Assembly (NCBI GenBank): GCA_040766585.1
Contig: JAXGQE010000010.1
Location: 63,117 to 127,116, forward strand
Origin: Candidatus Sumerlaeota bacterium
GTDB lineage: Bacteria; Bacillota; SLNR01
Reading direction: 5' to 3'
DNA: 64,000 nucleotides
Below the pieces are notes generated by a model. That model had not been told where the DNA came from and made no database searches. It saw only the letters and a program-made list of their open reading frames with translations. Numbering within the stretch: position 1 is the stretch's first letter; the number at the start of each line of letters is the position of its first letter. The position numbers were made by a program, and so were the translations under genes. Below, in pieces: positions 9,361 to 45,107 of the stretch.

Positions 9361-9400
9361 AGCCTACAACGAACCAATCGAGGATGCAGGAGGGGAAAGA

Positions 9401-9988
9401 ATGATACCTGAAATTGTGGACATGATTCAAAAATCAGCAGCCATTGCCGTCGGTCTGGCGCTGCTGAATGTGGTGACCGCCTTTTTGATGAGGATGTATC
9501 TGACCTGGGCAGTGATTCGGAAAAAGCAGGTGGACCTGCATGTCAGACCCACCCAGAAGCAGTGGGTGAACTATGTGGCTCCTCTTCAGGATGTGGAATT
9601 CAAAGGACTTGTGGTCATGATCGTGGTGATTGTCCTGATCGCATACTTTATTAAGCAAATTCCAGCCGCCTCCGGGCTGATTGTGATTCTGGTGGGGCTG
9701 TCCTTTTTCACGTTTACACTGGGGCTGGCCCGTCCCTCGTATTATCTGACGCCCGAGGGTCTGGTGGTGTTAAACTGGTACCCGCCCTATATGAATCGGA
9801 ATATGGGGTTTTTCCGCTGGAGCCTTTTTGAGAAGTATGCCGCCACCGATGACGGTGTTGTGGTAGGCAGCCCGAAGCGAATCATTCCCATCATCTGCGA
9901 ACAGAAGGATCTGGATGCAGTACGCCGCTATGTGCGGCGGATGATGAACCGCCTGAGGGCAGAGGCCGGTCTGGAAACACTGGATTAA
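9401..9988 (+). CDS. hypothetical integral membrane protein
   Basis: 195 aa with several hydrophobic helices; RBS AGGAGGGGA upstream; followed by a bidirectional terminator. Confidence 0.6.
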   Translation: MIPEIVDMIQKSAAIAVGLALLNVVTAFLMRMYLTWAVIRKKQVDLHVRPTQKQWVNYVAPLQDVEFKGLVVMIVVIVLIAYFIKQIPAASGLIVILVGLSFFTFTLGLARPSYYLTPEGLVVLNWYPPYMNRNMGFFRWSLFEKYAATDDGVVVGSPKRIIPIICEQKDLDAVRRYVRRMMNRLRAEAGLETLD

Positions 9989-10018
9989 AAAAAGCCCGGT
10001 GAAGACCGGGCTTTTGGC
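9985..10018. terminator. bidirectional intrinsic terminator between convergent genes
   Basis: Perfect 10-bp stem AAAGCCCGGT/ACCGGGCTTT with GAAG loop (9991-10014), A-run on one side and T-run on the other. Confidence 0.7.
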
Positions 10019-10024
10019 AGTGCC

Positions 10025-11104
10025 TTATTGAGGGGGCTGCAGGCGAATGGCTTTGGTGGGGCATTTTTCCTGACAGCAAAAGCAGACAATACACTTTTCT
10101 GAATCCACTCGGGGGTAGCCGTCCATGGTGATGGCACCGGCCGGGCATTCTGCCGCACAGGTACCGCACATGGTGCAGAGATCCTCATCCACCTGGGGAC
10201 GCTGGGCACGGATCCGGGCCCAGAAATCTCCAGAACCGCCGCGTTCCGGTTTCAGATAGCCCTCCGGATGCTTGTAGTCTTGGATGATCGTCAAAGTACC
10301 GTCAACATGGATTTTATCCAGATCTTTTTCACCGAATCCCCGGGCATGGCCCAGTTCGGTGGATCGGATCATGCCGGGGGCGAAGTTCATCATGGCTCCA
10401 ATGACAGCATCCACGGCCACCATGTCGGTACCGGCCAGGATCAGACCCAGGGAGCGTATATCTTCGGAGAAGGGACCGTTCCCTTCCATGGCCAGGATTC
10501 CATCCACAATGGCCAGGTCCGGCGGTCGGATGGAGAATACATCCAGCAAAGCAGCCGGAAAGTCGTACGGGTTTCCGGCGGTAAAATGCAGATTGGCTTT
10601 CTGGGCGCCGGGCAAATACCCGTAGCAGTTTTTGATAGCACCGGACAGGCCGGTAAGGCCATGGGTTTTGAATTTGGGTAAATTGATCACATAATCGGCT
10701 TCCAGAATGGCTTCGGATACTGCCGGATGCGGCAGATACTGAGAATCCAATGTCAGTTCTCGTACCCGGGTACCGAAGTTTTCGTAGTACTCTCCGGCGG
10801 CTTCCAGCAGTCCGGTTTCGGCAAACGATCCCCTATTGGCTCCGTAACTGGATGCTCCGGGGTTATCACCCACGATGATGGAGGCCGGGTGACGGGCTTC
10901 AACCGCTCGCAGTACTGCGGATAAAACGGCCGGGTGGGTTGTAACACCCTCATGGGGTTTGGATCCTCGCAGGACATTGGGCTTTAAGACCACTTTTTTA
11001 CCAGCTAATGGTGGATCGAAACGAGCAAAGATTTCATCCACCACTGCCTGGCAGTTATCGTATTGTGCTGAACGGATCATGACAGTGGGTTTCAACGGTT
11101 TCAT
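10025..11104 (-). CDS. DUF362 domain protein fused to a C-terminal 2x[4Fe-4S] ferredoxin domain
   Basis: ORF 10025-11152; C-terminus CTMCGTCAAECP ... CIVCFCCQEKCP (two CxxCxxCxxxCP motifs). Start ambiguous (ATG 11152, 11104 or 11080; none has an ideal SD). Confidence 0.75.
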   Translation of the reverse strand: MKPLKPTVMIRSAQYDNCQAVVDEIFARFDPPLAGKKVVLKPNVLRGSKPHEGVTTHPAVLSAVLRAVEARHPASIIVGDNPGASSYGANRGSFAETGLLEAAGEYYENFGTRVRELTLDSQYLPHPAVSEAILEADYVINLPKFKTHGLTGLSGAIKNCYGYLPGAQKANLHFTAGNPYDFPAALLDVFSIRPPDLAIVDGILAMEGNGPFSEDIRSLGLILAGTDMVAVDAVIGAMMNFAPGMIRSTELGHARGFGEKDLDKIHVDGTLTIIQDYKHPEGYLKPERGGSGDFWARIRAQRPQVDEDLCTMCGTCAAECPAGAITMDGYPRVDSEKCIVCFCCQEKCPTKAIRLQPPQ

Positions 11105-11188
11105 CCTCTCTCTATGAATTGGTGATATATCATTTCGCGGTGGGAACACCATTTCCTTTTTCAGCCGCTAAGCGGAAGGGGTTGTCGG

Positions 11189-12475
11189 ATGAGCGTATTT
11201 CAAAGCAAGGCACTGCCCAACGGGACCGTGCTGCACGTGTACCCGACCGAACAGTTTAAAGAAACACGGATGGATTTGTTTTTGCACCACAATCTGGGAC
11301 CGGATACGACCCGGACAGCCCTGCTTTCCCAGGTGCTGATGCGGGGATCGGCCGCATTTCCCACCATGAAGGCCATAGAAAAAGAACTGGCAGCCCTTTT
11401 TGGCGCTTCGGTGGGAAGCCGCATGCAAAAAAAAGGCGAGCGCCATCTGCTGGGCATTTCGGTAAGCGGTGTGGGTGAGAAGTATCTGGACGAGGCCATA
11501 CCCGTTTTGGAACGCAGCATCGTTTTGGCTTCGGATCTTCTGCTGCATCCGGTGCTGGAAAACCAGGTATTCCGGACCGATTATGTGCAGCAGGAGAAAA
11601 AATCACTGCGGGAAGCCATTGAAAGCATTTACAACGACAAACGTTCGTATGCGTACAAACGCTGCGTGGAAATCATGTGTGCCGGGGAAGAATACCGCCG
11701 GCATCCATATGGAAATGTGGAGGATCTGGATGCCATCGAAAGCGGCGATCTGTACGCATTCTACCGCAGACTGCTGACAGAAAACCCACTGGAACTGTAT
11801 GTGGTGGGCCGGGTGGACCCGGAAAGACTCTACGATCACTGCGCCCGATATTTTTCCCACCCGAGAACCGGTACCGCTGTAATGAGGGCGACGGAACGGG
11901 TTGCACCGCCTGCGGCGCCCCGCCGTGTGGTGGAAGAAGAACCCGTGCAGCAGGGAAAGCTGGTGGTGGGTTACCGCACAACCTACGGGGTGGAGGATCC
12001 GGAATACTATGCCATGCTTATGTACAATCAGATTCTGGGCGGCAGCGGGAACTCCAAACTGTTTATGAATGTGCGGGAGAAAGCCAGCCTGGCCTATTAT
12101 GTGTCGTCCAACATAGAAGGAGCCAAAGGGGTGATGTTTATCCAGGCGGGAATTGAACCGGATACCCTGGATCAGACCCTGGAGATCATAGACCGGCAGC
12201 TGGAAGATATGAACCAGGGACAGATCAGCGATACTGAATGGCTCCAGAGCCGGGAAACCCTTTTGGAATCCATGCAAAAACTCAGCGATTCTCCGGGCGC
12301 TCTGATTCAACTGGGGCTGTCGGGACGCTTGTACAACCGGACCCAGTCGGCGGCGGAAATCATGGAACGGATCCGGGCGGTGAGCCTGGATGATGTGGTG
12401 CGGGTTGCAGGTTCCATGGTGCAGGATACCGTCTACTTCCTGACCGGAAAGAAAGGAGGGTCCAGTCCATCATGA
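11189..12475 (+). CDS. M16 (pitrilysin)-family peptidase-like protein, probably the non-catalytic partner subunit
   Basis: 428 aa with M16 fold-like sequence but no HxxEH motif seen; stop overlaps the start of the next M16 gene. RBS GGAAGGGG upstream. Confidence 0.75.
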   Translation: MSVFQSKALPNGTVLHVYPTEQFKETRMDLFLHHNLGPDTTRTALLSQVLMRGSAAFPTMKAIEKELAALFGASVGSRMQKKGERHLLGISVSGVGEKYLDEAIPVLERSIVLASDLLLHPVLENQVFRTDYVQQEKKSLREAIESIYNDKRSYAYKRCVEIMCAGEEYRRHPYGNVEDLDAIESGDLYAFYRRLLTENPLELYVVGRVDPERLYDHCARYFSHPRTGTAVMRATERVAPPAAPRRVVEEEPVQQGKLVVGYRTTYGVEDPEYYAMLMYNQILGGSGNSKLFMNVREKASLAYYVSSNIEGAKGVMFIQAGIEPDTLDQTLEIIDRQLEDMNQGQISDTEWLQSRETLLESMQKLSDSPGALIQLGLSGRLYNRTQSAAEIMERIRAVSLDDVVRVAGSMVQDTVYFLTGKKGGSSPS

Positions 12476-13752
12476 ACATCCACCATCACGGTCGTCTGCA
12501 GGAAATGGTCATCAGTGAAAAGCTGGACTGCGGTTTGGAAGTCCATGTGATTCCCAAGAAAGGATTCTCCGAGAAATATGCGGTGCTTACCACCCGATTC
12601 GGTTCGGTGGATCATTCGTTTGTTCACCCGGAGACCGGCACGGTACAAACCGTTCCGGACGGGATCGCTCATTTTCTGGAGCATACTCTGTTTGAAAAAG
12701 AAGACGGGAACATTTCCGACCGGTTTTCCAATCGGGGCGCATACCACAACGCCTATACCAGTTTCACTTCAACTTCGTATCTGTTTTCCTGTGCCCGCGA
12801 CTTTTCGGAAAACCTGACTACCCTGATGGATCTGGCCTACCACCCATATTTCACAGAAGCATCTGTGGAAAAGGAAAAGGGCATCATCGAGCAGGAAATC
12901 ATCATGTACGATGATCTGCCCCACTGGAAAGTGTACCAGAACCTGCTGGAGGCCATGTATCAGGTCCATCCGGTGCGGATCAACATTGCCGGAAGCGTGC
13001 CATCCATCCGTTCCATTACCGCCGAAACGCTGGCTGACTGTCACCGGATTTTTTATCATCCCCAGAATATGGCGCTGTACTGCGCAGGGGATCTGGATGC
13101 CGAGCAGGTTATTCGATCGGCGTCCGGATACATGGAACGAATTCAGCTGCCTCCCTTTGATCCCGTGAAGCGGCAGATCCCGGATGAACCGGCGGCTGTG
13201 GCTCATTCAGAGGTGGTGGAAAAGGGTGCGGTACTGAGGCCGCTGGTGATGATGGGCTGGAAAGAGGCGGATCCATCTGCCGATGCCCGCACGGCACTGA
13301 TGCGGGAACTGGAAAATGAGATCATTATGGAAGCTCTGTTCGGCAAAGGATCGGATCTGTTCAACGATCTCTATGAATCCGGGGTACTGTCCAGCCAACT
13401 GGATCTTGATTACAGCAATGCACCCCATTACGGGTATGCCCTGATCGGAACCGAAACGGAAAAACCGGATGTGCTGATTGAACAAATCGGGAAAACGCTG
13501 CAGCGGGTTCGAAAAAACGGGCTGGATCCCCGTTTGTTTGAAGAATCCAGACGGCGAATCGCCGGAAGCTTTATTCAGACTTTTGATCATATGGAACGGT
13601 TGGTCAATGCCTTTGTGTCCACATACCATCGGGGATTTCTCTTTTTCGATTACGACACAGCCCTGCGAGAAGTGTCCTTATCCGGTGTGCGGGAACGCCT
13701 CAGTGAATTCTGGATTCCGGATGAATGCAGTGTGTCCATCGTCCAGCCGTAA
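12472..13752 (+). CDS. M16-family zinc peptidase (catalytic subunit)
   Basis: Inverted zinc-binding motif HFLEH (HxxEH) near the N-terminus; 426 aa; translationally coupled to the preceding M16-like gene. Confidence 0.8.
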   Translation: MNIHHHGRLQEMVISEKLDCGLEVHVIPKKGFSEKYAVLTTRFGSVDHSFVHPETGTVQTVPDGIAHFLEHTLFEKEDGNISDRFSNRGAYHNAYTSFTSTSYLFSCARDFSENLTTLMDLAYHPYFTEASVEKEKGIIEQEIIMYDDLPHWKVYQNLLEAMYQVHPVRINIAGSVPSIRSITAETLADCHRIFYHPQNMALYCAGDLDAEQVIRSASGYMERIQLPPFDPVKRQIPDEPAAVAHSEVVEKGAVLRPLVMMGWKEADPSADARTALMRELENEIIMEALFGKGSDLFNDLYESGVLSSQLDLDYSNAPHYGYALIGTETEKPDVLIEQIGKTLQRVRKNGLDPRLFEESRRRIAGSFIQTFDHMERLVNAFVSTYHRGFLFFDYDTALREVSLSGVRERLSEFWIPDECSVSIVQP

Positions 13753-17110: not shown

Positions 17111-18367
17111 TTAAGCCAGCCAGGGTTTGCTTCTCAGTTCTTCCGGTGGATGCGGGTTGGGCACAAAATCGCTGGTGTCCACATCATGTTTCATAACATG
17201 AAGGGTATAGGCGATGGTGGCCATCACTCCCAGAGGAAGCACTTCCTCGTCCACTTCGAAATGGGGATTGTGGTGAGCAGCACCGGTTCCTTTTTCTTCA
17301 TTGGCTATGCCGACGAAGGCAAAGACGCCGGGAGCATACTTCAGGTAAAAAGCCATGGATTCCGAAGCCATCCAGGTGGGTTCGTTCATCAGGTATTCTC
17401 CGCCCATGGCCGTACGGATGGCATCTTCTGCAGCCTTGGACAGCCCAGGGTGATTCATGACAATCATACCGCTGGGATTCAGTCCGGATTTTACATCATA
17501 GGTGCAGTGATGCAGGGCGCAGCAGTGATCCAGGATCTCTTTGGTCCGGGCAGCAGACTTCTTGGATTCTTCCAGATCGGTAACTCGGAAGGACCCGGCA
17601 AATGTCAGTGTTTCCGGAATGATATTGGGAGCGCTGCCGGCGTTGATTTTCCCTACGCTCATGGTGGTGGCTTTAAAGGGATCCAGTGTGGTCATCCGCA
17701 TGGCGTTCATGTTCTGATAGACATCCACGAAGCAGTCTAGGGGGCTATGGGAAAGATCCGGCCGGGATCCGTGGCCGCCCTGGCCTTTGATTTCCACTTC
17801 GAAGAATACACCGGCGGCCATACGGGGACCGGGGTCGACAGAAATCTTTCCGGAAGGCATTCCGGCGTACAGATGGATTCCCCAAATGGCATCCGGCTTT
17901 TCTTCCAGGACCATATTGGAGATCGCCAACGCGCCGTAGCCCATTTCTTCGCCCTGTTCAAACATCAGGACCACTTCGCCATCCAGTTCATCCGCATGTT
18001 CCTTCATGATTTTGGCAGCGGTCAAGAGCATGGATGTGTGGCCATCGTGACCGCAGGCGTGCATGGCGGCATCGGTTTTGGAGCAATATTTTCGCGGGCC
18101 TTTCAGGTTGTCTTCGGCTTCTTTCATGGGCAGTGCGTCGATGTCTGCCCGCAGTCCGATTTTTTTGCCCTTTTTGCCTTTGTTGATCCAGCCGATAATT
18201 CCGCCATCGCGGTCTTCCGCTTCGATGCCCATTTTTTTAAGTTCTTCCATCACCACTTTTTTGGTGTTGGTTTCCTTGCCGCCCACTTCCGGATTTTCAT
18301 GGAAGTAGACATACATCTTCTGCAGGTATTCGGCTTCCTGCTGTACTGCTTTTTTCAGATCCAGCAT
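17111..18367 (-). CDS. M20-family amidohydrolase (N-acyl-amino-acid amidohydrolase / hippurate hydrolase type)
   Basis: 418 aa; metal-binding region MHACGHDGHTSMLL typical of M20D; RBS AAAGGAGGT 7 nt upstream. Confidence 0.88.
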   Translation of the reverse strand: MLDLKKAVQQEAEYLQKMYVYFHENPEVGGKETNTKKVVMEELKKMGIEAEDRDGGIIGWINKGKKGKKIGLRADIDALPMKEAEDNLKGPRKYCSKTDAAMHACGHDGHTSMLLTAAKIMKEHADELDGEVVLMFEQGEEMGYGALAISNMVLEEKPDAIWGIHLYAGMPSGKISVDPGPRMAAGVFFEVEIKGQGGHGSRPDLSHSPLDCFVDVYQNMNAMRMTTLDPFKATTMSVGKINAGSAPNIIPETLTFAGSFRVTDLEESKKSAARTKEILDHCCALHHCTYDVKSGLNPSGMIVMNHPGLSKAAEDAIRTAMGGEYLMNEPTWMASESMAFYLKYAPGVFAFVGIANEEKGTGAAHHNPHFEVDEEVLPLGVMATIAYTLHVMKHDVDTSDFVPNPHPPEELRSKPWLA

Positions 18368-18442
18368 AGAATAACCTCCTTTTGACTTAGCCTGATGCCA
18401 GACCGTGCGCCCGCAGCCCGGGACGCATGTCGTTCATTCAGG

Positions 18443-19855
18443 TTAATAACCGATCCAGTTGATGCTGAAGAGGACATAGATCCAGACAAAGGACAGCAGA
18501 ATCATCCCCACCACAATGGGGAGAGCCCACTTGAACCATTTGTCGAAGGGAACCCCTGCCGCTGCACAAGATCCTACTGTCCAGCCCAGAGCCGGGGAAA
18601 TGATGTTGGTGAAACCGTCGCCGAACTGGAACGCCTGGACCGCCAGCTGAGGATTCATGCCCAATACTTCGGTAATGGGTTTGATGATGGGCATAAGAAT
18701 GGCTGCTTTGCTGGAGGCCGATGGGATGATGGGGTTGATGATGGCGATGATCCCTGTCAGACCAATGGCGGCAATGCCCTGGTCCAGACCCCGCAGCGGG
18801 AGTGTCAGAACGTACACGATGGTATGAGTAATGTTCCCTTCGTTCATGACCAGGGAAACAACACGGGCCATCCCGATGATGAAGCCGACAAATGCCATTC
18901 CGCCCAGTCCTTTGGCGTAGGCATCCCCGATTTCATCGGCCGACAATCCGGCGATGACGCCGCAGAGGACGGCATTGACGGTGGTAACCGCGGTCAGGAA
19001 GTTATATACGCTGCCGCCTTGTCGGGCATAGGTCAGAGAATACCAGACAATCAGCCCGTACTGGCCGAAGAAAAGCAGCAGGATAACGATGTCCCGCCAT
19101 GAAATGTGGGCTTCATGGATGGCACTTTCGCCGCTGTCATCAATGACCTTCAGCCAATCCGTATTGCCCATGGCCGATTTGCTGGGATCTTTCAGAATCC
19201 GGTTGGCGTACCAGAGAACATAGAGGATGGCGATGATTCCGAAGAAGAACATGATGACCATACGCATGCCGAACCCGGAATAGATGGGTACTTCCATCAT
19301 GGACTGGGGAATCAGCAGTTTGTTGGGCCCGGTGCCGAACCCCACCAATGTGGCAAAAGTGGTAACGGCAATGGCCATAATGGGATCCAGCCTCAGTTTT
19401 CTGGCAAAGACCAGACCCACCGGGACCAGTGCAATCAGGTAGTCGCCGCCTCCGAAAGCGCTGAGGATGATCAGCATGCTCATCAGAAGAACGATCAATG
19501 TGTTGGGTCCTTTATCCTTGAGCTTGAAGGTGGCCCAGCTCAAGAAGTTGTCGATGGCCTTGGTGGCCAAAATGACCCCGATGGAGGCTCCTCCGACCAG
19601 TACCACCATGATGATGAATGCAGACTGGACCAAGCCGTCCTGGAACAGGTAAATGGCCCGGAACGGGCTGACCGGTGTCTGTTCATCCCGATAAATGAAG
19701 TTGGATCCATCCACCACTCCATTTTCGTCCACTGCGAAATTTCCTGCGGGGATCACATAGGTCAGCGCGCTCATGATGAGGATCAAACCGATCAGGATCC
19801 ACATCAGATGAGGCATTTTAAAGCCTTTCTTTTTTTCCTTCTTTTCGTCGGCCAT
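18443..19855 (-). CDS. YfcC/DcuC-family membrane transporter
   Basis: ORF 18443-19999, start at ATG 19855 (MADEKKEKKKGF...) behind AGGAGGAGG; many TM helices; 75 nt upstream of the M20 gene on the same strand. Confidence 0.8.
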   Translation of the reverse strand: MADEKKEKKKGFKMPHLMWILIGLILIMSALTYVIPAGNFAVDENGVVDGSNFIYRDEQTPVSPFRAIYLFQDGLVQSAFIIMVVLVGGASIGVILATKAIDNFLSWATFKLKDKGPNTLIVLLMSMLIILSAFGGGDYLIALVPVGLVFARKLRLDPIMAIAVTTFATLVGFGTGPNKLLIPQSMMEVPIYSGFGMRMVIMFFFGIIAILYVLWYANRILKDPSKSAMGNTDWLKVIDDSGESAIHEAHISWRDIVILLLFFGQYGLIVWYSLTYARQGGSVYNFLTAVTTVNAVLCGVIAGLSADEIGDAYAKGLGGMAFVGFIIGMARVVSLVMNEGNITHTIVYVLTLPLRGLDQGIAAIGLTGIIAIINPIIPSASSKAAILMPIIKPITEVLGMNPQLAVQAFQFGDGFTNIISPALGWTVGSCAAAGVPFDKWFKWALPIVVGMILLSFVWIYVLFSINWIGY

Positions 19856-20162
19856 ACTGAGAGACCTCCTCCTTGTATAATGATTGCTGAGTGTCCAGAC
19901 AGCATACAGTGCGCATGCTGTACCGATCCAGCCTGTCTGTTGGCTGCGGACCGTTTGACTGTGGCTGCAAGTCGTGCATCCCCTGATTCCCTTTGTCAAT
20001 ATACGAACGAAAAGACCTTTGTGGGATTAAAGGATTACAGCGGATATTCACGAATCTAACATAAACACGGCAAAGGTCTGAACAGACAGATATTGATACT
20101 TTCATTATATCCAAAGTGTTGTGAAAAAGTGCATATTCATGCAATATGGCAATGCCAACCTC

Positions 20163-35842: not shown

Positions 35843-36322
35843 GTGAGGCCAAGTTTTCTAATGAACAGGACCCCCACAAAGTTCGGTCCTCCTCCGAAAG
35901 AGGAGTTGGAAGGCGGTTTGAAGGACTTGCTGGAAGCGAGTCTGGAGGAAGGGGAAAAGGTGTTGGTCTGCACTCCGGGCGGTATGGGTGAGGCGTTGGT
36001 GGGCACAGACAACCGTGTCATGGCGCTGAAATGTGGTTTCATGGCTGGAGCCTACAAAGAACCGATTTGCTTTTCATTCCCCTATGAGGAGATCTATCTG
36101 TTTGAGTGGGGTCGTAAGCGCCGCATTTTGGAGATTATTCCCTACGACGATATCAAGAAGAAAAAAGCAGTCATTACGTTCTTGCCTTTCCATGACAAAG
36201 CATTCGGGAATGCTGTGAATTTCATGGCAAAGAAAGTAGTGGAAACCCGCAAAAAGAACCCGGAAATAGCCGATAAAGCATTGCGTCAGGCTCAGGAAGA
36301 AGCCAAGAAAATGCGCTGGTAA
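35843..36322 (+). CDS. hypothetical protein
   Basis: 159 aa; GTG start behind AAAGGAGGT (7-nt spacing); followed by a terminator. Confidence 0.5.
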   Translation: MRPSFLMNRTPTKFGPPPKEELEGGLKDLLEASLEEGEKVLVCTPGGMGEALVGTDNRVMALKCGFMAGAYKEPICFSFPYEEIYLFEWGRKRRILEIIPYDDIKKKKAVITFLPFHDKAFGNAVNFMAKKVVETRKKNPEIADKALRQAQEEAKKMRW

Positions 36323-36335
36323 GTTCGATTTTTAC

Positions 36336-36360
36336 TGCCCGACTGCTGTCGGGTTTTTTA
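36336..36360 (+). terminator. intrinsic terminator
   Basis: Hairpin CCCGAC-TGCT-GTCGGG followed by TTTTTT. Confidence 0.7.
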
Positions 36361-36489
36361 CTGTAAGGGAAAATTTTACAGCAGAAGGAAAGCGGAGATA
36401 AAATCGCGAATCTTTACAGGAAAGGTTTTTAATAAACCGGCTGCTGATACAGCTGCATGCCGGACATTATACACAAGGAGCGTGACAGT

Positions 36490-37242
36490 ATGAAACCGTT
36501 AATTGGGATTACTGGGAATGTAATGTTTTCTATGGACCTGGGGATCGATCCCCGTATGGCACATATAGTGCCTGAGTTTAATTCGTCACCGCGGGATTAT
36601 ACCGAAGCAGTCAAGGCTGCCGGTGGGATTCCGGTGGTTATTCCGCTGTGCACTGATGAGGATCTGTTGAAAGAAACTCTGGATAAGCTGGATGGAGTCC
36701 TGTTGACCGGTGGAGAAGATGTAGATCCGCTTAATTATGGTGAGGATTACAATCATCGAATTGAACTGGTCAGCCCGATTCGGGACAAATTTGATATGAC
36801 CGTGGCCAGGCTGGCAATGGATCGAGATATGCCGATTCTCGGGATCTGCCGCGGATGCCAGATTATCAATGTCACGGAAGGTGGGACATTGTATCAGGAT
36901 ATCAGTTCGCAGGTGAAAGACTCACTGCGTCATCCTTTGGTAGGTATTACCCCCAAATGGCACAAATCCCATCTGGTTACCCTGGATCCCGAATCCAAAC
37001 TGGCAGGCATCTACGGGACCCGTGAAATGTGGACCAACGGTTTCCATCATCAGGCAGTCAAAGATGTGGCAGAGACCATGAAAGCCGTGGGGCATACCAA
37101 AGACGGCATGGTGGAAGCCATTGAAAGCAAAAAGCATACGTTCGTTGTCGGTGTTCAATGGCATCCGGAAATGATGCTGGAAAAACACCAGGATGTACTG
37201 CCTTTGTTTGAATCATTCGTGAAAGCGGCTCAAAGCAAATAG
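36490..37242 (+). CDS. class I glutamine amidotransferase-like / peptidase C26 hydrolase (gamma-glutamyl-GABA hydrolase PuuD-like)
   Basis: ORF 36457-37242, start at ATG 36490 behind AAGGAG; catalytic-Cys region ILGICRGCQ and HPE near the C-terminus. Confidence 0.82.
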   Translation: MKPLIGITGNVMFSMDLGIDPRMAHIVPEFNSSPRDYTEAVKAAGGIPVVIPLCTDEDLLKETLDKLDGVLLTGGEDVDPLNYGEDYNHRIELVSPIRDKFDMTVARLAMDRDMPILGICRGCQIINVTEGGTLYQDISSQVKDSLRHPLVGITPKWHKSHLVTLDPESKLAGIYGTREMWTNGFHHQAVKDVAETMKAVGHTKDGMVEAIESKKHTFVVGVQWHPEMMLEKHQDVLPLFESFVKAAQSK

Positions 37243-37264
37243 CAAATAAACGGGAGGTATGTTC

Positions 37265-38599
37265 ATGAGTAAAGGTGGAATCGAGATTAAGACTTCAATT
37301 CCGGGACCCCGATCCACATCTTTGCAGGAACGACGGCAAAAAGTAGTCCCTCGCGGCGCAGCCAGTGCAACCCCTTTGGTAGTTGAAAAAGGACGAGGCG
37401 CCCTTCTGGAAGATGTGGATGGAAACAAGTATCTGGATTTTGCCGGTGGTATCGGTGTGCTGAATGTAGGCTACAGTCATCCGAAGGTAGTGGCCGCGGT
37501 GAAAGACCAGGCGGAAAAGATGTTCCATACCTGTTCGGCTGTTAGCATGTACGAACCGTATATCGATCTGGCTGAAAAACTCACAGCACTGATCCCCGGG
37601 GATTATCCCAAGAAAACGGTTTTCCTCAACAGCGGAGCAGAAGCTGTAGAGAATGCTGTGAAGATTGCCCGCAGCTATAGCAAACGGCCTGCCATCGTTG
37701 TATTCGAAAATGCATTCCACGGACGGACTTTGCTGACCATGTCCATGACAGCAAAGATTGTACCATACAAAGCCAACTTCGGACCTTTTGCTCCTGAAAT
37801 ATATCGTCTGCCTTACCCATATTGCTATCGCTGCCCGTTCGGACTGGAATACGGCAGCTGTGGCATGCGCTGTCTGGAATATATTGAAGAAAGTTTTACC
37901 ACCCATATTGCTCCCGAAGATGTGGCAGCCCTGGTTATCGAAACGGTAGTTGGAGAAGGCGGCTTCCTGGTACCACCTAAAGAATTCCTGCCCGGACTGC
38001 GCAAAATCTGTGAAAAGTACAACATCCTCTTTGTCGCAGACGAGATCCAGTGCGGATACGGACGAACCGGCAAGATGTTTGCCTTTGAACATTATGGAAT
38101 CGTACCGGACCTGGTTACCGTGGCCAAATCCCTGGCAGCCGGACTGCCACTCAGTGCCGTGGTAGGAAAGGCCGATGTGATGGATACAACAGTGATCGGC
38201 GGGCTGGGAGGCACATACAGCGGGAATCCGGTGGCCTTGGCGGCAGGGAATGCGGTCCTGGATGTCATGGAGGAAGAAAAACTGCTGGAAAAAGCCAAAG
38301 TGTTGGGCGATCTGATGATGAAACGATTCAAAGAGATGCAGGAGCGCTATCCGGTTATCGGCGATGTTCGCGGACTGGGAGCCATGGTGGCCATCGAGTT
38401 GGTGGAAGATCGGGAAAGTAAAAAGCCGGCTGCGGATGCAACCAAAAAAATCATGAAATACTGTTACGAACACGGCTTAATCCTGGTAAAAGCTGGGATG
38501 TTTGATAATGTTGTCAGGATGCTTCCTCCTCTGGTAACCACTCCGGAGCAGATGGAGATCGGTCTCGATCTGATTGAAGAAGCACTGAAAACTCTGTAA
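37265..38599 (+). CDS. gabT: 4-aminobutyrate (omega-amino acid) aminotransferase, class III
   Basis: Strong resemblance to E. coli GabT as I recall it (LDFAGGIGVLNVGYSHPKVVAAV, GAEAVENAVKIAR, GDVRGLGAMVAIEL); start at ATG 37265 (7 nt after GGGAGG). Confidence 0.88.
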   Translation: MSKGGIEIKTSIPGPRSTSLQERRQKVVPRGAASATPLVVEKGRGALLEDVDGNKYLDFAGGIGVLNVGYSHPKVVAAVKDQAEKMFHTCSAVSMYEPYIDLAEKLTALIPGDYPKKTVFLNSGAEAVENAVKIARSYSKRPAIVVFENAFHGRTLLTMSMTAKIVPYKANFGPFAPEIYRLPYPYCYRCPFGLEYGSCGMRCLEYIEESFTTHIAPEDVAALVIETVVGEGGFLVPPKEFLPGLRKICEKYNILFVADEIQCGYGRTGKMFAFEHYGIVPDLVTVAKSLAAGLPLSAVVGKADVMDTTVIGGLGGTYSGNPVALAAGNAVLDVMEEEKLLEKAKVLGDLMMKRFKEMQERYPVIGDVRGLGAMVAIELVEDRESKKPAADATKKIMKYCYEHGLILVKAGMFDNVVRMLPPLVTTPEQMEIGLDLIEEALKTL

Positions 38600-38671
38600 T
38601 ACAAAGGACTGCATAAAGACAGATAGGGACGCAGGTCCCTATCTGTTTGACTCTGAAGGCGGGGTGATTGC

Positions 38672-40513
38672 ATGATGAAAGGATACATGGGAAAAATTCT
38701 CCATGTGGATTTGACCACTGAAACAATCCATACAGATTTTTATGATGAAGCCCACTTACGCAAATACATCGGCGGCAGCGGGCTGGGGGCCCGTATTCTC
38801 TATGACGAAACGGATGAATCCACCGATCCGCTGGGGCCTGATAATGTGCTGATCTTTATGACCGGTCCTCTCGTCGGGACAAAAATTCCTATGACCGGAC
38901 GGCATGCCGTGGTGGCAAAATCACCATTGACAGGCATTTGGGGTGAATCCGATTCGGGGGGGCACTGGGGATACATGCTCAAACGAGCTGGATTCGACGG
39001 CATAGTGTTTCGAGGTGCAGCGTCGAAACCGGTATATTTGTGGATTCACGAAGGAGAAGTGGAAATTCGCCCAGCCGATTCGATTTGGGGGCAGGACTCA
39101 TTTGTCACCGAAGAGATGATTCAAAAAGAAACCCATTCAAAAGCCGCCGTTGCCTGCATTGGCCCGGCTGGTGAGAATCTGGTCCGCATGGCTGCCATTA
39201 TGAATGACGGGAAAGACAGTCGTGCGGCAGGACGCTGCGGATTGGGCGCTGTCATGGGTTCCAAAATGCTTAAAGCAGTGGCTGTGTTTGGCGCAGAAGA
39301 GACACCGGTGGCAGACCCAGAAAAACTGGCTCAGATGGGGCGTACCATCGCCAAGCAAATAGCGGAGCGGACAAAAAGCTTCAGTGCTTTCGGAACATCC
39401 GGTGGACTGCAGACGGCAGAAAAAGTGGGCGATTTACCCATTCAGAACTGGCGAACCGGAACCTGGGAAAGCGGTGCTGCGAAAATATCAGGCCAAGCTA
39501 TGGCCGATTCCATATTGACCGGTAAATTTTTCTGTCAGGGTTGTGTAATTGGATGCGGACGAGTGGTTAAGCAGTATTATCAACCGTTTGCCGGCCTTGC
39601 CGGTGGCGGACCGGAATATGAAACGTTGGGTATGATTGGCAGCAACGCGCTGGTGGACGACCTGGAGACCATTGCTCGGGCCAATGAGTTGTGCAACCGC
39701 TACGGTGTTGATACTATTTCATGCGGTTCTGCAGCTGCCTTTGCTATAGAATGCTTCGAGCGCGGGTTAATCACCAAAGATGATACGAATGGCCTGGAAT
39801 TGGCCTGGGGTGATGGGAAAACACTGTTGGCACTCATTGAGATGATTGTTAAAAAGGAAGGGATCGGCGAGATTCTCAGTCAGGGAACTCGACGGGCAGC
39901 CGAAGCAATCGGAGGCATAGCATCCGAATTTGCGATTCATGTCAAAGGACTGGAACTTCCGGCTCATGACCCACGCGCCTACATCAGTCTGGGTGTAGGG
40001 TATGCAACCTCCAATCGGGGGGCATGCCATCTGCAGGGCTACAGCTATGCATTCGAACGAGGATTAACCTCCCCGGATATGGGATTTCCTGAGGTTTTGG
40101 ATCGTTTCTCTATGGACCGGAAAGGAGAACTGGCCGCAAAAACCCAGAATCTGATGAGCATGTTTGATTCCCTGAAAGTATGCAAGTTTATCCTCAGCGG
40201 GGGCGTGGATGTGCATAATCTGGTGGAATGGCTCAATGCTTCCACCGGCTGGGATATGACCGATGAGGAGTTTATGCGGACCGGAGAACGTTTATATAAT
40301 CTGAAACGAATGTACAATGTCCGCTGCGGGATCAGTCGAAAAGACGATGTCTTGCCCATGCGTATTCTGACGCAGCCCCGACGGGAAGGCGGTGCCGGAT
40401 ACAATCTGCCGCCTCTGGGGCCGATGCTGCACGAATACTATGCAATACGGGGTTGGTCCGATGAAGGGATTCCCCGTCCAGAAAAACTCAGCGAGCTGGA
40501 ATTACACATCTAA
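38672..40513 (+). CDS. aldehyde:ferredoxin oxidoreductase (tungsten/molybdopterin AOR family)
   Basis: 613 aa; N-terminal AOR domain (KILHVDLTT...YIGGSGLGARIL) and AOR-family length and architecture. Confidence 0.9.
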   Translation: MMKGYMGKILHVDLTTETIHTDFYDEAHLRKYIGGSGLGARILYDETDESTDPLGPDNVLIFMTGPLVGTKIPMTGRHAVVAKSPLTGIWGESDSGGHWGYMLKRAGFDGIVFRGAASKPVYLWIHEGEVEIRPADSIWGQDSFVTEEMIQKETHSKAAVACIGPAGENLVRMAAIMNDGKDSRAAGRCGLGAVMGSKMLKAVAVFGAEETPVADPEKLAQMGRTIAKQIAERTKSFSAFGTSGGLQTAEKVGDLPIQNWRTGTWESGAAKISGQAMADSILTGKFFCQGCVIGCGRVVKQYYQPFAGLAGGGPEYETLGMIGSNALVDDLETIARANELCNRYGVDTISCGSAAAFAIECFERGLITKDDTNGLELAWGDGKTLLALIEMIVKKEGIGEILSQGTRRAAEAIGGIASEFAIHVKGLELPAHDPRAYISLGVGYATSNRGACHLQGYSYAFERGLTSPDMGFPEVLDRFSMDRKGELAAKTQNLMSMFDSLKVCKFILSGGVDVHNLVEWLNASTGWDMTDEEFMRTGERLYNLKRMYNVRCGISRKDDVLPMRILTQPRREGGAGYNLPPLGPMLHEYYAIRGWSDEGIPRPEKLSELELHI

Positions 40514-40527
40514 CAGGGAGTGAGTAT

Positions 40528-42045
40528 ATGTCATTGGAACGGATCCGTCATGCAGGGCTGCGGGAGAAGGTTGTCTCTGCGAAAGATGCTGCTGCTTTGA
40601 TTCAGGATGGCATGAATATTGCCATCAGTGGATTTGCTCTTGCCGGAAATCCCAAGGAAGTACTGCCGGCCATGGTCAAAGAGATACAGAACAGCGGAAT
40701 CAGAAAAAAAATCAATCTGTGGACAGGTGCTTCCACGGGTTTTGAGGTAGACGGCCTGCTGGCTGAAAACGATGTTGTGATGAGACGATTCCCGTATCAG
40801 AGCAGCAAAGAAATGCGGCAGAGGATCAATCAGGGGGATGTTCAATATACAGATATGCATTTGAGCATGTCGCCCCAGTCTGTCCGGTATGGCTGGTGGG
40901 GTCATCTGGATTTGGCCATAATTGAGGCGGCTGCCATTACAGAAGAAGGGGAAATCGTTCTGACGACTGCGGTGGGAAACAGCCCGACTTTTGTGGAAGT
41001 TGCGGATCGGGTAATCATTGAAATCAATGAAACATTTCCGGAGAACCTGGAGGGAATTCACGACATTTTCCAGATAGCTGATCCTCCCGAAAGGATGTCG
41101 ATTCCGCTAACCCATCCAGATCAGCGTATCGGTTCACCGTTCCTTCATGTGCCTTTGGAAAAAGTGAAGGCCATTGTGTTTTCCAATGTACCGGAGAAGG
41201 GGCCTGTGTTTTCACCGGTGGAGGATGTTCACCAGAAGATTGCAGGGCATCTTATCGACTTTTTGGAGGGAGAGGTGGCCATCGGGCGAATGCCGCCTAA
41301 CCTGCTCCCTCTGCAGTCCGGTGTTGGCAATGTCGCCAATGCAGTACTGGCTGGTCTGGCCGATTCCAAGTTCAGTCATCTGCGTGTCTATTCTGAAGTG
41401 CTGCAGGATTCGATACTGACTCTTTTGGAAAGCGGTAAACTGGATTTTGCCTCCGGGTGTGCCATTAACCTGTCCCGAGATGCCATGCAAAAACTGTATT
41501 CCAATCTGGACTGGTACAAAGGAAAATTGATGCTCAGGCCTCTGGAAATCAGCAACCATCCGGAAGTGATCCGCCGCCTGGGGTTAATATCCATGAACAC
41601 GGCATTGGAAGCGGATATTTACGGCAATGTCAATTCAACTCATGTTCTGGGCAGCAAAATCATGAATGGTATTGGCGGTTCCGGTGACTTCACTCGAAAT
41701 GCCTTCCTATCATTTTTCTTTACTGAATCGATTGCAAAGCAAGGTAGTGTTTCATCCATTGTGCCGTATGTATCGCATACTGACCATACAGAACACGATG
41801 TAGATGTGATTATTACGGAACAGGGAGCGGCTGATTTGCGGGGATTATCTCCCCGGGAAAGAGCGCTGCGGATTATTCATCAATGTGCTCATCCGGATTA
41901 CCGTGATGCGCTGCAGGACTATTTTGATCGGGCCTGCCGCATGTCAGGAGGGCAAACACCGCATATTCTGGATCAGTGTTTCTCCTGGCACACCCGTTTC
42001 CAGAAAACGGGCAGCATGAAAGAGAATGAGAGTGATGCATTATGA
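40528..42045 (+). CDS. acetyl-CoA hydrolase/transferase-family CoA-transferase (succinate or 4-hydroxybutyrate CoA-transferase-like)
   Basis: 505 aa with family-typical N- and C-terminal domains (GNPKEVL..., GIGGSGDF); RBS CAGGGAG 7 nt upstream. Confidence 0.88.
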   Translation: MSLERIRHAGLREKVVSAKDAAALIQDGMNIAISGFALAGNPKEVLPAMVKEIQNSGIRKKINLWTGASTGFEVDGLLAENDVVMRRFPYQSSKEMRQRINQGDVQYTDMHLSMSPQSVRYGWWGHLDLAIIEAAAITEEGEIVLTTAVGNSPTFVEVADRVIIEINETFPENLEGIHDIFQIADPPERMSIPLTHPDQRIGSPFLHVPLEKVKAIVFSNVPEKGPVFSPVEDVHQKIAGHLIDFLEGEVAIGRMPPNLLPLQSGVGNVANAVLAGLADSKFSHLRVYSEVLQDSILTLLESGKLDFASGCAINLSRDAMQKLYSNLDWYKGKLMLRPLEISNHPEVIRRLGLISMNTALEADIYGNVNSTHVLGSKIMNGIGGSGDFTRNAFLSFFFTESIAKQGSVSSIVPYVSHTDHTEHDVDVIITEQGAADLRGLSPRERALRIIHQCAHPDYRDALQDYFDRACRMSGGQTPHILDQCFSWHTRFQKTGSMKENESDAL

Positions 42046-43271
42046 TCCGTCATCTTGAAAAAGGAGTGGGATTCCGCCAAAGTATCGCCGGGATCCCTTC
42101 CAGGATTCATGCGGATAATGTCAGTGCCGGCATTGTTGCCGGCATTTTCAATATTGGCACTCTGCTTTTAATCACAAAAATTCTTCAGGATGCTGGGCTG
42201 CCCCAACCGGTTATTCTGTCCTGGATTCTGGTCGTATTCACGGGCGGGGGTTTCCTATCTCTGATCATGTCGCTGTATTACCAAAAGCCCATTGCCGGCG
42301 CATGGAGCATTGCTGGGCTGGTTCTGGTCAGCGGCTCCCTGCCGTATTATTCTCTGCCCCAGCTTACGGGTGGTTTTTTTATGGCGGGTGCAATTGTTGC
42401 CTTGTTGGGTTTTACCGGCGTCATCAGCCGCATCGTCCGATGGCTGCCACGGCCGGTCATGATGGCCATGATTGCAGGAATTTTGCTGCGCTTTGGGGTG
42501 GGCATTATTGTGGCTCTGGAACAGGATCCGCTTTTAGCCGGAATTCCCCTTATTCTTTTTATGGTCTCCCAGCGGCTTTTCCCCCGATTTCCAGCGGTAC
42601 TGTCTGCTCTGGTGGGCGGTGGCCTGATGGTTTTTTTCAGCCACACCATCACCTGGAGCCCGATTGTACTGGGAGTGGCACGGCCGGTTTTTGTGGTCCC
42701 GGAATTTACTCTTCCTGCATTGGTGGGAATCAGTTTGCCATTGGCTCTGACCATCATCGGGGCTGAAAATATGCAGGCTATGGGTATTCTGATGGCGGAA
42801 GGGTACGATCAGCATCCTCCGGGGACTACGGTACCGATGAATGCCATGACAGCAGCCTCCGGGCTGGGCATCATGATTGTTTCTTTCTTTGCCGGCCACA
42901 GCCTTACCATGGCCGGGGTGCTGACGGCAATTTGCAGTGGTGAAAGTGCTGGAGAAGATCGTGATGGACGGTATATAGCCGCTCTGGTTGCTGGGCTTAT
43001 TACCATGATGTTTGGGATTTTGGGGGCTACGCTGGTTCATGTACTGGAATCCATGCCAGAGTCTTTGATTAATGCTGTCGCAGGCCTGGCCATGGCGGGA
43101 GCGTTGATTGCTTCATTCCGCAGTGCATTTTCAGGCCGATTTAGTTACGGGGCCTTTTTTGCATTTGTCACTGCTGTATCCGGAATTCGTGTTCTCGGTA
43201 TCGGGGCTCCATTTTGGGCGCTTCTTCTGGGACTTGCGGCTGCAGCGATGCTGGATGGGAAGGATTGGTAA
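42042..43271 (+). CDS. BenE-family (benzoate/organic-acid:H+ symporter-like) membrane transporter
   Basis: 409 aa polytopic membrane protein; start overlaps the CoA-transferase stop (ATGA), indicating translational coupling. Confidence 0.78.
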   Translation: MIRHLEKGVGFRQSIAGIPSRIHADNVSAGIVAGIFNIGTLLLITKILQDAGLPQPVILSWILVVFTGGGFLSLIMSLYYQKPIAGAWSIAGLVLVSGSLPYYSLPQLTGGFFMAGAIVALLGFTGVISRIVRWLPRPVMMAMIAGILLRFGVGIIVALEQDPLLAGIPLILFMVSQRLFPRFPAVLSALVGGGLMVFFSHTITWSPIVLGVARPVFVVPEFTLPALVGISLPLALTIIGAENMQAMGILMAEGYDQHPPGTTVPMNAMTAASGLGIMIVSFFAGHSLTMAGVLTAICSGESAGEDRDGRYIAALVAGLITMMFGILGATLVHVLESMPESLINAVAGLAMAGALIASFRSAFSGRFSYGAFFAFVTAVSGIRVLGIGAPFWALLLGLAAAAMLDGKDW

Positions 43272-43420: not shown

Positions 43421-43724
43421 TAACGACATTATAGATTGCATCCGAACCAGTTGGATGTGGTGGACGGATACAGAAGGAGGTGGAAGATGGGTAAGGGAAG
43501 AGATCCGATCGGGAACACGGCATGGAGTCTTCTCGGTTGTCAAAGCGCCAGAACTTGACTTCGGTCAAGTTGACGAGGGAGAGGTTAATCGAATCTTCGG
43601 CGGGTGCCTCTCGGTGCAGTCACCATCGTAGAAATGCTACAAATCCCGGAAGTGATTTCGGTGACAAAAGGCATTGCAGTGACAATTGTAGTTTGATATA
43701 TGAATATTGGGGGAGGAATCGTTT

Positions 43725-45071
43725 ATGTCGGCTTCTTTTAGGCCTGACTATACAAAGGAAGACGTCCTGGCTAAGGCAAAGGAAGAGGGCGTTGAATTCG
43801 TTCGGCTTCAGTTTTCTGATATCCTTGGCATCGCAAAGAATGTAGCCATTCCGGTTAGAGAACTGGGACATGCACTGGACGGCAAGGTTATGTTTGACGG
43901 CTCATCCATTTCCGGATTTGTCCGGATTGAGGAATCAGATATGTACCTGCGTCCAGATCCAGGTAGTTTCGAAGTGTATCCCTGGACACGGGGAGAGGGA
44001 ACCAGTGCTCGACTGATCTGCGATGTGTATAACCCGGATGGGACTCCGTTTGCCGGATGCCCTCGCGGTATTTTGAAACGGGTTATGCAGGAAGCAAAAG
44101 ATCTTGGATACACTTTCTACACAGGCACGGAGGCGGAATTTTTCCTCTTCCCAAAAGATGGGAATGGTCATATAATTGCGACCACTCATGACAATGGAGG
44201 GTATTTTGATTTTCCACCCACGGATTTGGGTGAAAATGCCCGACGGGACATGATCGTAGCCCTGGAAAAGATGGGATTTGAAGTGGAAGCTTCTCATCAC
44301 GAGACTGCCCATGGCCAGCATGAGATTGATTTTCGCTATGCGGATGCGCTCCTGACTTCAGATAATGTACTAACCTTTAAACTGGTGGTCAAGACCATCG
44401 CTATGCAGCATGGACTGCATGCTACATTTATGCCGAAACCGGTTTGCGGTATCAACGGTTCAGGTATGCATACTCACCAGTCGCTGTACAAAAACGGCAG
44501 GAACGCTTTCGAAGACCCGAGCAAACCCCACGGATTGAGTGACGAGGCAATGCATTACATGGGAGGATTGCTCAAGCATGCCCGTAGTTTTGCAGCCATT
44601 ACCAATCCATTGGTCAATTCGTACAAACGATTGGTTCCGGGGTATGAAGCACCGGTGTACATCGCCTGGTCTGAACGGAACCGGAGTCCGCTGATTCGGA
44701 TTCCCGCGATGCGGGGTGCCGGGACGCGTATTGAACTGCGTTTTCCGGATCCCACATGCAATCCATATCTGGCGATGGCTGTTATGCTGAAGTCAGGTCT
44801 GGATGGGATTAAAAATAAGATTGATCCCGGAGAACCAACCAATATCAATATCTATAAGATGACTGAAGAGGAAAAGGATTCAATGGGCATTATCAGTTTG
44901 CCAGGCAGCCTGGAAGAGGCGCTGGATGAATTGGAAGCCAGTGAACTGATGCGGGAGGCTCTGGGAGATCATACTTATGAACACTTCCTGGCGGCAAAAC
45001 GCAGAGAATGGGATTCGTACCGCATTCAGGTTCATCAGTGGGAAATTGATAAGTATATGAGCACATTTTAA
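43725..45071 (+). CDS. glnA: glutamine synthetase, type I (Bacillus-like)
   Basis: ORF 43707-45071, start at ATG 43725 behind GGGGGAGG; near-identical blocks to B. subtilis GlnA as I recall it ([20 protein letters not shown], KPxxGxNGSGMH, [13 protein letters not shown]). Confidence 0.93.
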
Positions 45072-45078: not shown

Positions 45079-45107
45079 AGGCTGCATTTCGGTGCAGCCT
45101 TTTTTTT
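45079..45107 (+). terminator. intrinsic terminator after glnA
   Basis: Perfect 8-bp stem AGGCTGCA/TGCAGCCT with TTTCGG loop followed by T7. Confidence 0.85.

Follow-up and report, generated by a model that had tools for sequence, protein, structure and literature searches.

The 64,000-nucleotide stretch of DNA analysed here (the window; positions 63,117 to 127,116 of contig JAXGQE010000010.1, assembly GCA_040766585.1, forward strand) carries at 36361-43271 an operon of five genes that probably serves the catabolism of 4-aminobutyrate (GABA), in which a stand-alone aldehyde:ferredoxin oxidoreductase (AOR) would replace the NAD(P)-dependent GabD or Sad. This reading is carried by the family memberships of the products and by the linkage between the genes for the GabT aminotransferase and the AOR, which is conserved in close relatives, recurs in unrelated loci and excludes genes of the aldehyde dehydrogenase (Aldedh) superfamily. 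Furthermore, we put the chances about even that GabT and AOR together represent a widespread, undescribed ferredoxin-dependent route by which strict anaerobes, Bacillota and Desulfobacterota among them, oxidise GABA and related omega-amino acids, a route that would have arisen at least twice.

Fermentation and decay in guts, sediments and digesters commonly yield omega-amino acids, among them GABA and those derived from putrescine. Schemes of their oxidation by anaerobes usually feature NAD(P)-dependent semialdehyde dehydrogenases or the clostridial 4-hydroxybutyrate route. In the gabDTP shunt, the Puu pathway and the clostridial 4-hydroxybutyrate routes alike, the enzymes that act on succinate semialdehyde are NAD(P)-dependent. 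A ferredoxin-reducing step would change the energetics, since the electrons could drive H2 production or ion-pumping complexes, and this would be relevant to syntrophic and sulfate-reducing settings. Current reviews still describe the cellular roles of the AOR family as 'unclear'.

The five genes of the operon

As the initial annotation had described, the operon consists of five co-directional and closely packed genes, all of them intact ORFs on the + strand that together span 36490-43271, with intergenic spacers of 16-22, 72, 14 and -4 nt, in that order. The identities that had been assigned to the products were right according to profile searches (PF07722, TIGR00700, AFOR_N/AFOR_C, TIGR03458 and PF03594), and the gene order is:

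36490..37242, + strand: C26-family gamma-glutamyl-amide hydrolase, PuuD-like, 250 aa (Peptidase_C26 PF07722, 218 bits)
37265..38599, + strand: GabT-type 4-aminobutyrate:2-oxoglutarate aminotransferase (ORF opens at 37259; TIGR00700)
38672..40513, + strand: stand-alone AOR-family aldehyde:ferredoxin oxidoreductase, 613 aa (AFOR_N + AFOR_C)
40528..42045, + strand: class I CoA-transferase of the succinyl-CoA:acetate / propionyl-CoA:succinate type (AarC/Cat1/ScpC; TIGR03458, NF053853)
42042..43271, + strand: BenE-family secondary transporter (PF03594, 247.8 bits over the full length)

The aminotransferase is a class III enzyme that passes the GABA-transaminase model TIGR00700 (557.3 vs a cut-off of 506.65) and stays under the stricter cut-offs of two other GABA-transaminase models (NF005376 and NF004714), while the scores of the putrescine-aminotransferase models are far lower than that of the GABA-transaminase equivalog. 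Its top PDB matches are all GABA transaminases and it is 46% identical to E. coli GabT, whose residues I50, R141, E211, Q242, K268, T297 and R398 are all invariant in the alignment; these comprise the lysine that carries pyridoxal phosphate (PLP; K268) and the residues that bind the substrate carboxylate. The gene probably starts at 37265, a position favoured by a GGGAGG site 7 nt upstream. Residues 189-205 (about 37823-37873) form an insertion with four cysteines that is not present in E. coli GabT (C-x2-C-x8-C-x3-C, 'PYCYRCPFGLEYGSCGMRC') and that is invariant or nearly so across the window's GabT subfamily; it may be a metal or iron-sulfur site. The idea that this insertion is specific to AOR-linked enzymes was rejected, since 14 of 28 Aldedh-linked GabTs have it too, alongside 13 of 15 AOR-linked ones.

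The two AOR domains extend over the full length of the third product (PF02730, 272 bits; PF01314, 453 bits), which also gave full-length matches to 9mqx, 1aor and 9g7j (447-465 bits). By its scores, 453-465 bits to 1aor and 9mqx vs 317 to FOR, we assign it to the AORs sensu stricto and not to FOR or WOR5. The cysteine ligands of the [4Fe-4S] cluster (288/291/295/504, equivalent to C288, C291, C295 and C494 of the Pyrococcus furiosus (Pf) enzyme) are kept here and in every GabT-linked AOR examined, and the window enzyme also keeps the second-shell residues T242, Y316, E317 and H453. Among the second-shell set of the Pf enzyme (Thr243, Glu313, Tyr427 and His448), the Thr, Glu and His are conserved and Tyr427 corresponds to His432, in the window AOR and across its subfamily; a 7-residue insertion follows the active-site His/Tyr segment. 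The Tyr427-to-His substitution has been reported for the active AOR of Clostridium formicoaceticum (PMC12096430, section 7), so His432 is compatible with activity. AorA- or AorC-type partner genes do not flank the AOR gene, which argues for a stand-alone enzyme, predicted to be of the ferredoxin type and to carry a tungsten-bis-pterin cofactor. We propose that it is a succinate-semialdehyde:ferredoxin oxidoreductase.

The CoA-transferase, with AcetylCoA_hydro and AcetylCoA_hyd_C domains, passes the cut-offs of the succinate CoA-transferase model TIGR03458 (742.6 vs 658.7) and of the ScpC model NF053853 (726.6 vs 500). It scored 505 bits against Acetobacter AarC (4eu3) vs about 90 bits against the 4-hydroxybutyrate CoA-transferases (3gk7), and an AbfT/Cat2-type 4-hydroxybutyrate CoA-transferase was rejected on the latter score. 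The AarC residues S71, E294, N347, G388 and E435 are conserved, Glu294 and Glu435 being presumably catalytic and Asn347 and Gly388 presumably oxyanion elements, and so are the YSEV, TEQG, SNxP and GIGGSGDF motifs; AarC Arg228 is replaced by Lys.

With regard to the two outer genes, the first one starts at 36490 behind an AAGGAG ribosome-binding site, and its product is 33% identical to E. coli PuuD with the triad Cys114/His222/Glu224 conserved. Its score on the PuuD equivalog NF008471 was 119.4, under the cut-off of 266, and the nearest PDB entries are 3fij and 6vtv, the top PDB match being the uncharacterised Lin1909. The protein, with its Cys-His-Glu triad intact, belongs in peptidase family C26 and should not be filed as PuuD. 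The BenE protein scored 203.4 on TIGR00843, which is exactly the cut-off. The ATG of its gene overlaps the stop codon of the CoA-transferase gene, as annotated initially, and by this 4-nt overlap BenE is translationally coupled to the CoA-transferase.

Conservation of the operon in close relatives

Homologous loci (numbered L001 and so on) were compared with the window. The full C26-GabT-AOR-CoA-transferase-BenE order, followed by a ribozyme and a glutamine synthetase (GS) gene, is found in L001 (AOR 82% identical) and L002-L004 (76%), whose MurE is only ~69-70% identical, and this makes the five-gene arrangement more than chance. L007 (AOR 68% identical) keeps GabT, AOR and CoA-transferase genes without those of C26 and BenE. 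GabT and AOR genes are also intact in L005/L006 and L008 (AOR 69-70% identical), where the CoA-transferase gene is fragmented (11879-13719, 11030-12870 and 11871-13272 in L005, L006 and L008, respectively) and the pair stands behind a different upstream neighbourhood, a chemotaxis cluster. As GabT and AOR stay while the CoA-transferase decays and the flanks change, the GabT-AOR pair is the core under selection. The C26 and BenE genes co-occur across the relatives; they come and go together and are accessory genes, which perhaps serve the uptake and release of a GABA conjugate.

The GabT-AOR pair in unrelated anaerobes

The initial annotation had suggested looking for the same five genes in other anaerobes; the full synteny turned out to be confined to close relatives (the C26 gene to the closest ones), whereas the GabT-AOR pair recurs. 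Two samples were taken, both among the matches listed: 80 species-representative loci with 38-58% AOR identity on the AOR side, and an arbitrary set of 80 metagenomic loci of the GabT family with 44-56% GabT identity on the GabT side, so that the neighbour frequencies given here come from arbitrary samples. GabT homologues adjoin AOR genes in at least 15 non-redundant loci. In L010, from a metagenome-assembled genome (MAG) of Bacillota, a GabT gene (54% identical; TIGR00700, 558) is the immediate upstream neighbour of an AOR gene (58% identical), beside ArgE/DapE-like and ornithine/putrescine-carbamoyltransferase-like genes, and in L068 a class III aminotransferase gene adjoins an AOR gene. 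Most of the same-subfamily AORs listed (L009, L011-L016) are not next to GabT. On the GabT side, seven clade members at >= 71% identity are followed by a large group at 56-62%, and four of the six homologues sampled from this group at ~58% identity (L089, L090, L091 and L174) have an AFOR gene adjacent or within 3 kb; the remaining ones stand with two Aldedh genes (L175) and with GS-like ligases (L176). L091 belongs to the cultured sulfate reducer Thermodesulforhabdus norvegica, which makes the hypothesis directly testable.

Pfam scans of the ORFs flanking the operon revealed no Aldedh-family gene in the window, and no match to E. coli GabD was found by tblastn (E <= 1e-3) in its 64 kb. An Aldedh/GabD-like neighbour, usually adjacent, was present in 27 of the 80 loci of the metagenome sample and an adjacent AOR in 5, and none had both. 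Aldedh genes occurred within the flanks of 0/15 non-redundant AOR-linked loci vs 27/75 others (Fisher p = 0.004), and the same tblastn search detected no GabD-like gene in 18 GabT-AOR loci. The AOR and aldehyde dehydrogenase neighbours of GabT are mutually exclusive.

The GabT-linked AORs form three groups: the lineage of the window, with His at Pf position 427; L103, which is 40-43% identical to it; and a lineage B of eight loci, 48-64% identical to each other and 31-38% to the window lineage, in which Tyr427 is retained. The lineages other than that of the window are 33-43% identical to the window enzyme, and at least two of the lineages share only 33-36% identity with one another. Lineage-B loci contain genes for glutamate dehydrogenase (L089, L090 and L110), uptake systems (ABC, TRAP and MFS), sigma-54/PAS activators (L089, L090, L110 and L147) and, in place of the CoA-transferase, an AMP-forming acyl-CoA ligase (L091, L110 and L118); lineage B shares with the window the logic that leads from an amine to an aldehyde, an acid and a CoA ester. 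Different AOR lineages beside one and the same gene, and no Aldedh there, are the mark of a non-orthologous displacement of succinate-semialdehyde dehydrogenase.

We also observed that Pf AOR position 455 (residue 460 of the window enzyme), just past the active-site His448-Tyr452 segment, is Lys in all eight lineage-B GabT-linked AORs and in L103, while it is Ser in the Pf AOR and varies among unlinked relatives; this Lys is a candidate contact for the distal carboxylate. A second case in which an AOR would follow on the PLP-dependent removal of an amine is L017, from a Methylomirabilota MAG, where a LysR regulator, an AOR 55% identical to that of the window, the ammonia-lyase PbfA, the aminotransferase PhnW and the aminoethylphosphonate transporter PhnS2/PhnT2 are encoded at 1723-12963, and where the AOR would occupy the place expected for a phosphonoacetaldehyde dehydrogenase or hydrolase. 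A 1106-aa AOR-aminotransferase fusion ORF in L017 was rejected, as the matches lie in different frames and correspond to adjacent genes.

The proposed route and the points against it

The suggestion of the initial annotation that the AOR would oxidise the semialdehyde made by GabT and that the CoA-transferase would activate the resulting acid finds support in comparative genomics, namely in the conserved GabT-AOR core, the several AOR lineages, the exclusion of Aldedh and the acyl-CoA ligase of lineage B. In the route that we propose, BenE would import the substrate and the C26 hydrolase would, as an accessory step, free GABA from a gamma-glutamyl-type or other amide conjugate. GabT, whose family is clear and whose substrate is predicted, would pass the amino group to 2-oxoglutarate yielding succinate semialdehyde, and the AOR would oxidise this to succinate with reduction of ferredoxin, as the gene context and the mutually exclusive distribution suggest. 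Finally, the CoA-transferase, a clear member of its family, would convert succinate to succinyl-CoA with acetyl-CoA or propionyl-CoA as the probable donor. One possible outlet for the succinyl-CoA would be the methylmalonyl-CoA route to propionate, which the window does not encode. Sequence and gene context are thus the grounds for predicting the substrates, the direction, the electron acceptor and the metal, as well as what becomes of succinyl-CoA. GABA and 5-aminovalerate had been named together at the outset; the AarC/Cat1/ScpC type of the CoA-transferase favours the former, and 5-aminovalerate is now the less favoured of the two.

The acid/aldehyde couple is of very low potential and can therefore reduce ferredoxin, feeding H2 formation or energy conservation, and such a step suits organisms of methanogenic or sulfidogenic consortia. 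If the proposal is correct, different AOR lineages would have been recruited in place of the NAD(P)-dependent succinate-semialdehyde dehydrogenase, AOR-family enzymes, which are usually seen as broad detoxifiers, would gain a dedicated catabolic role, and two uncharacterised AOR lineages would acquire a concrete physiological substrate. Electrons of low potential would then become available from amine catabolism for forming H2 or conserving energy, and in anaerobes AORs would have the part that aldehyde dehydrogenases otherwise have after PLP-dependent deaminating enzymes, with the AOR-PbfA-PhnW genes of L017 as a further example. Full-text literature searches, with most subscription journals outside their coverage, revealed no paper linking GabT or GABA catabolism to an AOR, in line with the earlier remark that the route was not recognised as described; the nearest precedent is a proposal for the Pyrococcus FOR (PMC12096430). 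The GabT-AOR route is apparently an undescribed low-potential variant of a well-known pathway, and not a new kind of system.

Several points weigh against this interpretation. A comparison of residues revealed no convincing adaptation for binding a dicarboxylate in the window AOR, which has Ala at Pf position 455 and the 7-residue insertion, and AORs sensu stricto are broad-spectrum enzymes that are often regarded as detoxifying (PMC12096430, section 7). The CoA-transferase gene is degraded in some relatives and is hence dispensable, the substrates of the C26 and BenE proteins are putative, and a conserved hairpin divides GabT from AOR and may modulate their co-transcription. It is also possible that an NAD(P)-dependent semialdehyde dehydrogenase, a 4-hydroxybutyrate dehydrogenase or a methylmalonyl-CoA pathway is encoded outside the window.

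Alternative explanations

The alternative that we take most seriously, although we consider it unlikely, keeps the mechanism and changes the substrate. This could be beta-alanine, 5-aminovalerate, which would give glutarate semialdehyde and then glutarate, or one of the diamines putrescine and cadaverine; with a diamine the pair would act twice, from diamine through amino-aldehyde to omega-amino acid and then through the semialdehyde to the diacid. GabT-family enzymes often take several omega-amino acids, and 5-aminovalerate transaminase and 3-amino-2-methylpropionate transaminase are among the names that the homologues bear. In L010 and L174 the pair is accompanied by genes related to arginine, agmatine or ornithine (carbamoyltransferase, ArgE/DapE-like, arginase-family), a carboxyltransferase and an acyl-CoA dehydrogenase near that of L090 are reminiscent of glutaryl-CoA metabolism, and the C26 enzyme resembles the polyamine-pathway hydrolase PuuD. 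Furthermore, AORs have a broad spectrum and the Pf FOR has been proposed to oxidise glutarate semialdehyde (PMC12096430). These substrates are, however, disfavoured by the CoA-transferase, which passes the succinate-type cut-offs (TIGR03458, ScpC) and has 505 bits to AarC, by the GabT, which passes the GABA-transaminase equivalog with the putrescine-aminotransferase models far below, and by the lack of a PuuA- or PuuB-type gene in the window, where the GS, at just 27% identity to PuuA, is a true GSI-alpha.

It is improbable that the AOR is a general aldehyde detoxifier merely co-located or co-expressed with GabT, with a conventional dehydrogenase elsewhere handling succinate semialdehyde. According to a review (PMC12096430, section 7), the detoxification of aldehydes is for the most part what AORs do, and their substrate ranges are wide; both the position of most same-subfamily AORs (L009, L011-L016) away from GabT and the hairpin between GabT and AOR would fit such a role. 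Several findings stand against mere co-location. GabT adjoins two or three lineages of AOR across many unrelated loci, much more often than chance would allow for a rare gene family; AOR and Aldedh neighbours exclude each other; GabT-AOR is retained as flanking genes decay or change; and an acid-activating enzyme is found directly downstream in both lineages.

Even less probable is the reverse direction, in which the AOR and reduced ferredoxin would turn succinyl-CoA/succinate into succinate semialdehyde and then GABA, in a biosynthetic or electron-sink role like that of acetogen AORs, which reduce acids. The capacity of AORs to reduce non-activated acids (PMC12096430, section 7) and the reversibility of the CoA-transferase reaction would allow it. 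Catabolism is indicated instead by the hydrolase and the uptake-type transporter of the operon and by the glutamate dehydrogenase, uptake systems and acyl-CoA ligases of lineage B; moreover, ferredoxin-driven acid reduction is thermodynamically uphill unless the product is strongly pulled away, and no GABA-consuming function is evident.

The least probable explanation, an aromatic or non-carboxylated primary amine (benzylamine, phenylethylamine) converted by an omega-transaminase and the AOR to an aromatic acid moved by BenE, draws on the naming of BenE for benzoate transport and on the Aromatoleum aromaticum AOR, which can oxidise phenylacetaldehyde in phenylalanine degradation (PMC12096430), but it is opposed by a GabT that keeps both carboxylate-binding arginines (R141 and R398) and passes the GABA-transaminase model, by a CoA-transferase of the succinate and not of the aryl-carboxylate type, and by the absence of BenE from most GabT-AOR loci.

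Comparison with known systems

The GABA route proposed here resembles E. coli gabDTP (GabT, the NADP-dependent GabD and GabP) in that its GabT has the same key residues, a transporter is part of the operon and the product would be succinate. It differs in the aldehyde step, which belongs to an AOR-family iron-sulfur/pterin enzyme and not to the Aldedh superfamily, no GabD-like gene being present in the window, in the addition of a CoA-transferase, and in the transporter, which is of the BenE type while GabP is of the amino-acid-permease type. The E. coli Puu pathway (PuuA-E) shares with the window a PuuE/GabT-type aminotransferase and a hydrolase related to the C26 protein; the latter is below the PuuD cut-off, and counterparts of the PuuA ligase, the PuuB oxidase and the PuuC dehydrogenase are missing from the window, whose scanned ORFs include no oxidase.

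Among the clostridial routes are the 4-hydroxybutyrate route of C. aminobutyricum and the Cat1-SucD-4HbD-Cat2 route of C. kluyveri. Like these fermentations of GABA and succinate, the window route would be anaerobic, would have succinate semialdehyde as an intermediate and includes a member of the Cat1-type succinate CoA-transferase family. Unlike in them, the semialdehyde would be oxidised with ferredoxin to succinate and not reduced to 4-hydroxybutyrate, and the CoA-transferase is not of the AbfT/Cat2 type (about 90 bits). Neither a 4-hydroxybutyryl-CoA dehydratase nor an iron-type alcohol dehydrogenase is among the scanned ORFs of the window.

Regarding other enzymes from the AOR/WOR family, glutaric semialdehyde has been proposed as the physiological substrate of the Pyrococcus furiosus FOR, and glutarate was bound in its crystal (PMC12096430, section 9). 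This proposed oxidation of an omega-semialdehyde is what makes FOR the nearest precedent, although the window enzyme is an AOR sensu stricto and FOR has no described operon link to an aminotransferase. The C. formicoaceticum AOR is similar to the window AOR in being a stand-alone catalytic subunit with four [4Fe-4S] cysteines, the Thr/Glu/His second shell and the Tyr427-to-His change, but this and other broad-spectrum AORs are viewed as detoxifiers or acid reductases with no dedicated pathway, while the window AOR lies inside a substrate-specific catabolic operon. The AOR of Aromatoleum aromaticum also oxidises an aldehyde from an amino-acid catabolic route (PMC12096430, section 7). It is, however, an AorABC complex that uses NAD+ and backs up a dedicated dehydrogenase, whereas the window AOR stands alone, is presumably linked to ferredoxin and has no rival candidate for the aldehyde step in its locus.

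Boundaries and RNA elements of the operon

Three elements outside the coding regions were located:

36337..36354, + strand: terminator-like hairpin with a T-run, which ends the upstream gene 35843-36322
36375..36404, + strand: sigma-70-like promoter candidate, TTTACA-18-TAAAAT (consensus match only)
38617..38648, + strand: conserved intercistronic RNA hairpin in the GabT-AOR spacer, 14-bp stem followed only by UUUG

The first hairpin, whose stem is conserved in L001, L002 and L004, is the 5' boundary of the operon. The promoter candidate is poorly conserved in an alignment of the upstream regions of the relatives, in which no conserved operator or sigma-54-type promoter was evident by eye. The hairpin between GabT and AOR (-23.8 kcal/mol, z = -5.8) is also found in L001 and L002, with about -24 to -28 kcal/mol over the three loci; in L007 the corresponding place is taken by a stem that differs in sequence, and L005 has no hairpin. 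Only UUUG trails it, so that attenuation or stabilisation of the transcript may be its effect and not full termination; we regard it as a candidate partial terminator, attenuator or mRNA stabiliser, through which the ratio of GabT to AOR expression could be set.

Directly upstream of the operon, with the terminator in between, the ORF 35843-36322 (+) encodes a protein of 159 aa that has no Pfam or NCBIfam match and is conserved in all relatives with 56-71% identity. An inserted chemotaxis gene cluster separates its homologue from GabT in L007 and L008.

Surroundings of the operon and the host

The features that follow the operon form a separate unit:

43533-43687, + strand: complete glmS ribozyme (102.8 bits), with an intact AAAGCGCCAGAACU core
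43725-45071, + strand: glutamine synthetase (GlnA, TIGR00653)
45079-45100: strong terminator after the GS gene

The GS was considered as a PuuA-like ligase that would complete a Puu-type pathway and was rejected in this role: it passes the GlnA model TIGR00653 (592 vs 429), fails the gamma-glutamylputrescine synthetase model (313 vs 650), scores 625 bits to the Bacillus-type GSI-alpha and is 27% identical to PuuA. By these scores it is a genuine GS, outside the pathway. The glmS ribozyme, which is activated by glucosamine-6-phosphate (GlcN6P), sits here in the 5' leader of a genuine GSI-alpha gene and not of a glmS gene, and the same pairing is present in L001 (14839-14994), L002 (14801-14955) and L007 (13643-13798). 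A literature search found no paper describing a natural pairing of a glmS ribozyme with a glutamine synthetase, an arrangement that would couple glutamine synthesis to amino-sugar status. Downstream of this unit there are a GNAT gene and the mraZ/dcw cluster.

At 17111-19999 (-), the window encodes an M20-family peptidase and a DcuC/AbgT-like transporter, a pair reminiscent of abg-type utilisation of aminoacyl or folate fragments; long + strand ORFs without a family match overlap these genes and are probably spurious.

With respect to the host, the MurE sequence reaches no more than about 57% identity to those of the cultured Desulfofundulus, Pelosinus and Thermincola, and on these matches we would place it in an uncultured, strictly anaerobic lineage of Bacillota. 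Metagenomes are the source of its close relatives, L002 for instance stemming from a methanogenic culture that degrades toluene.

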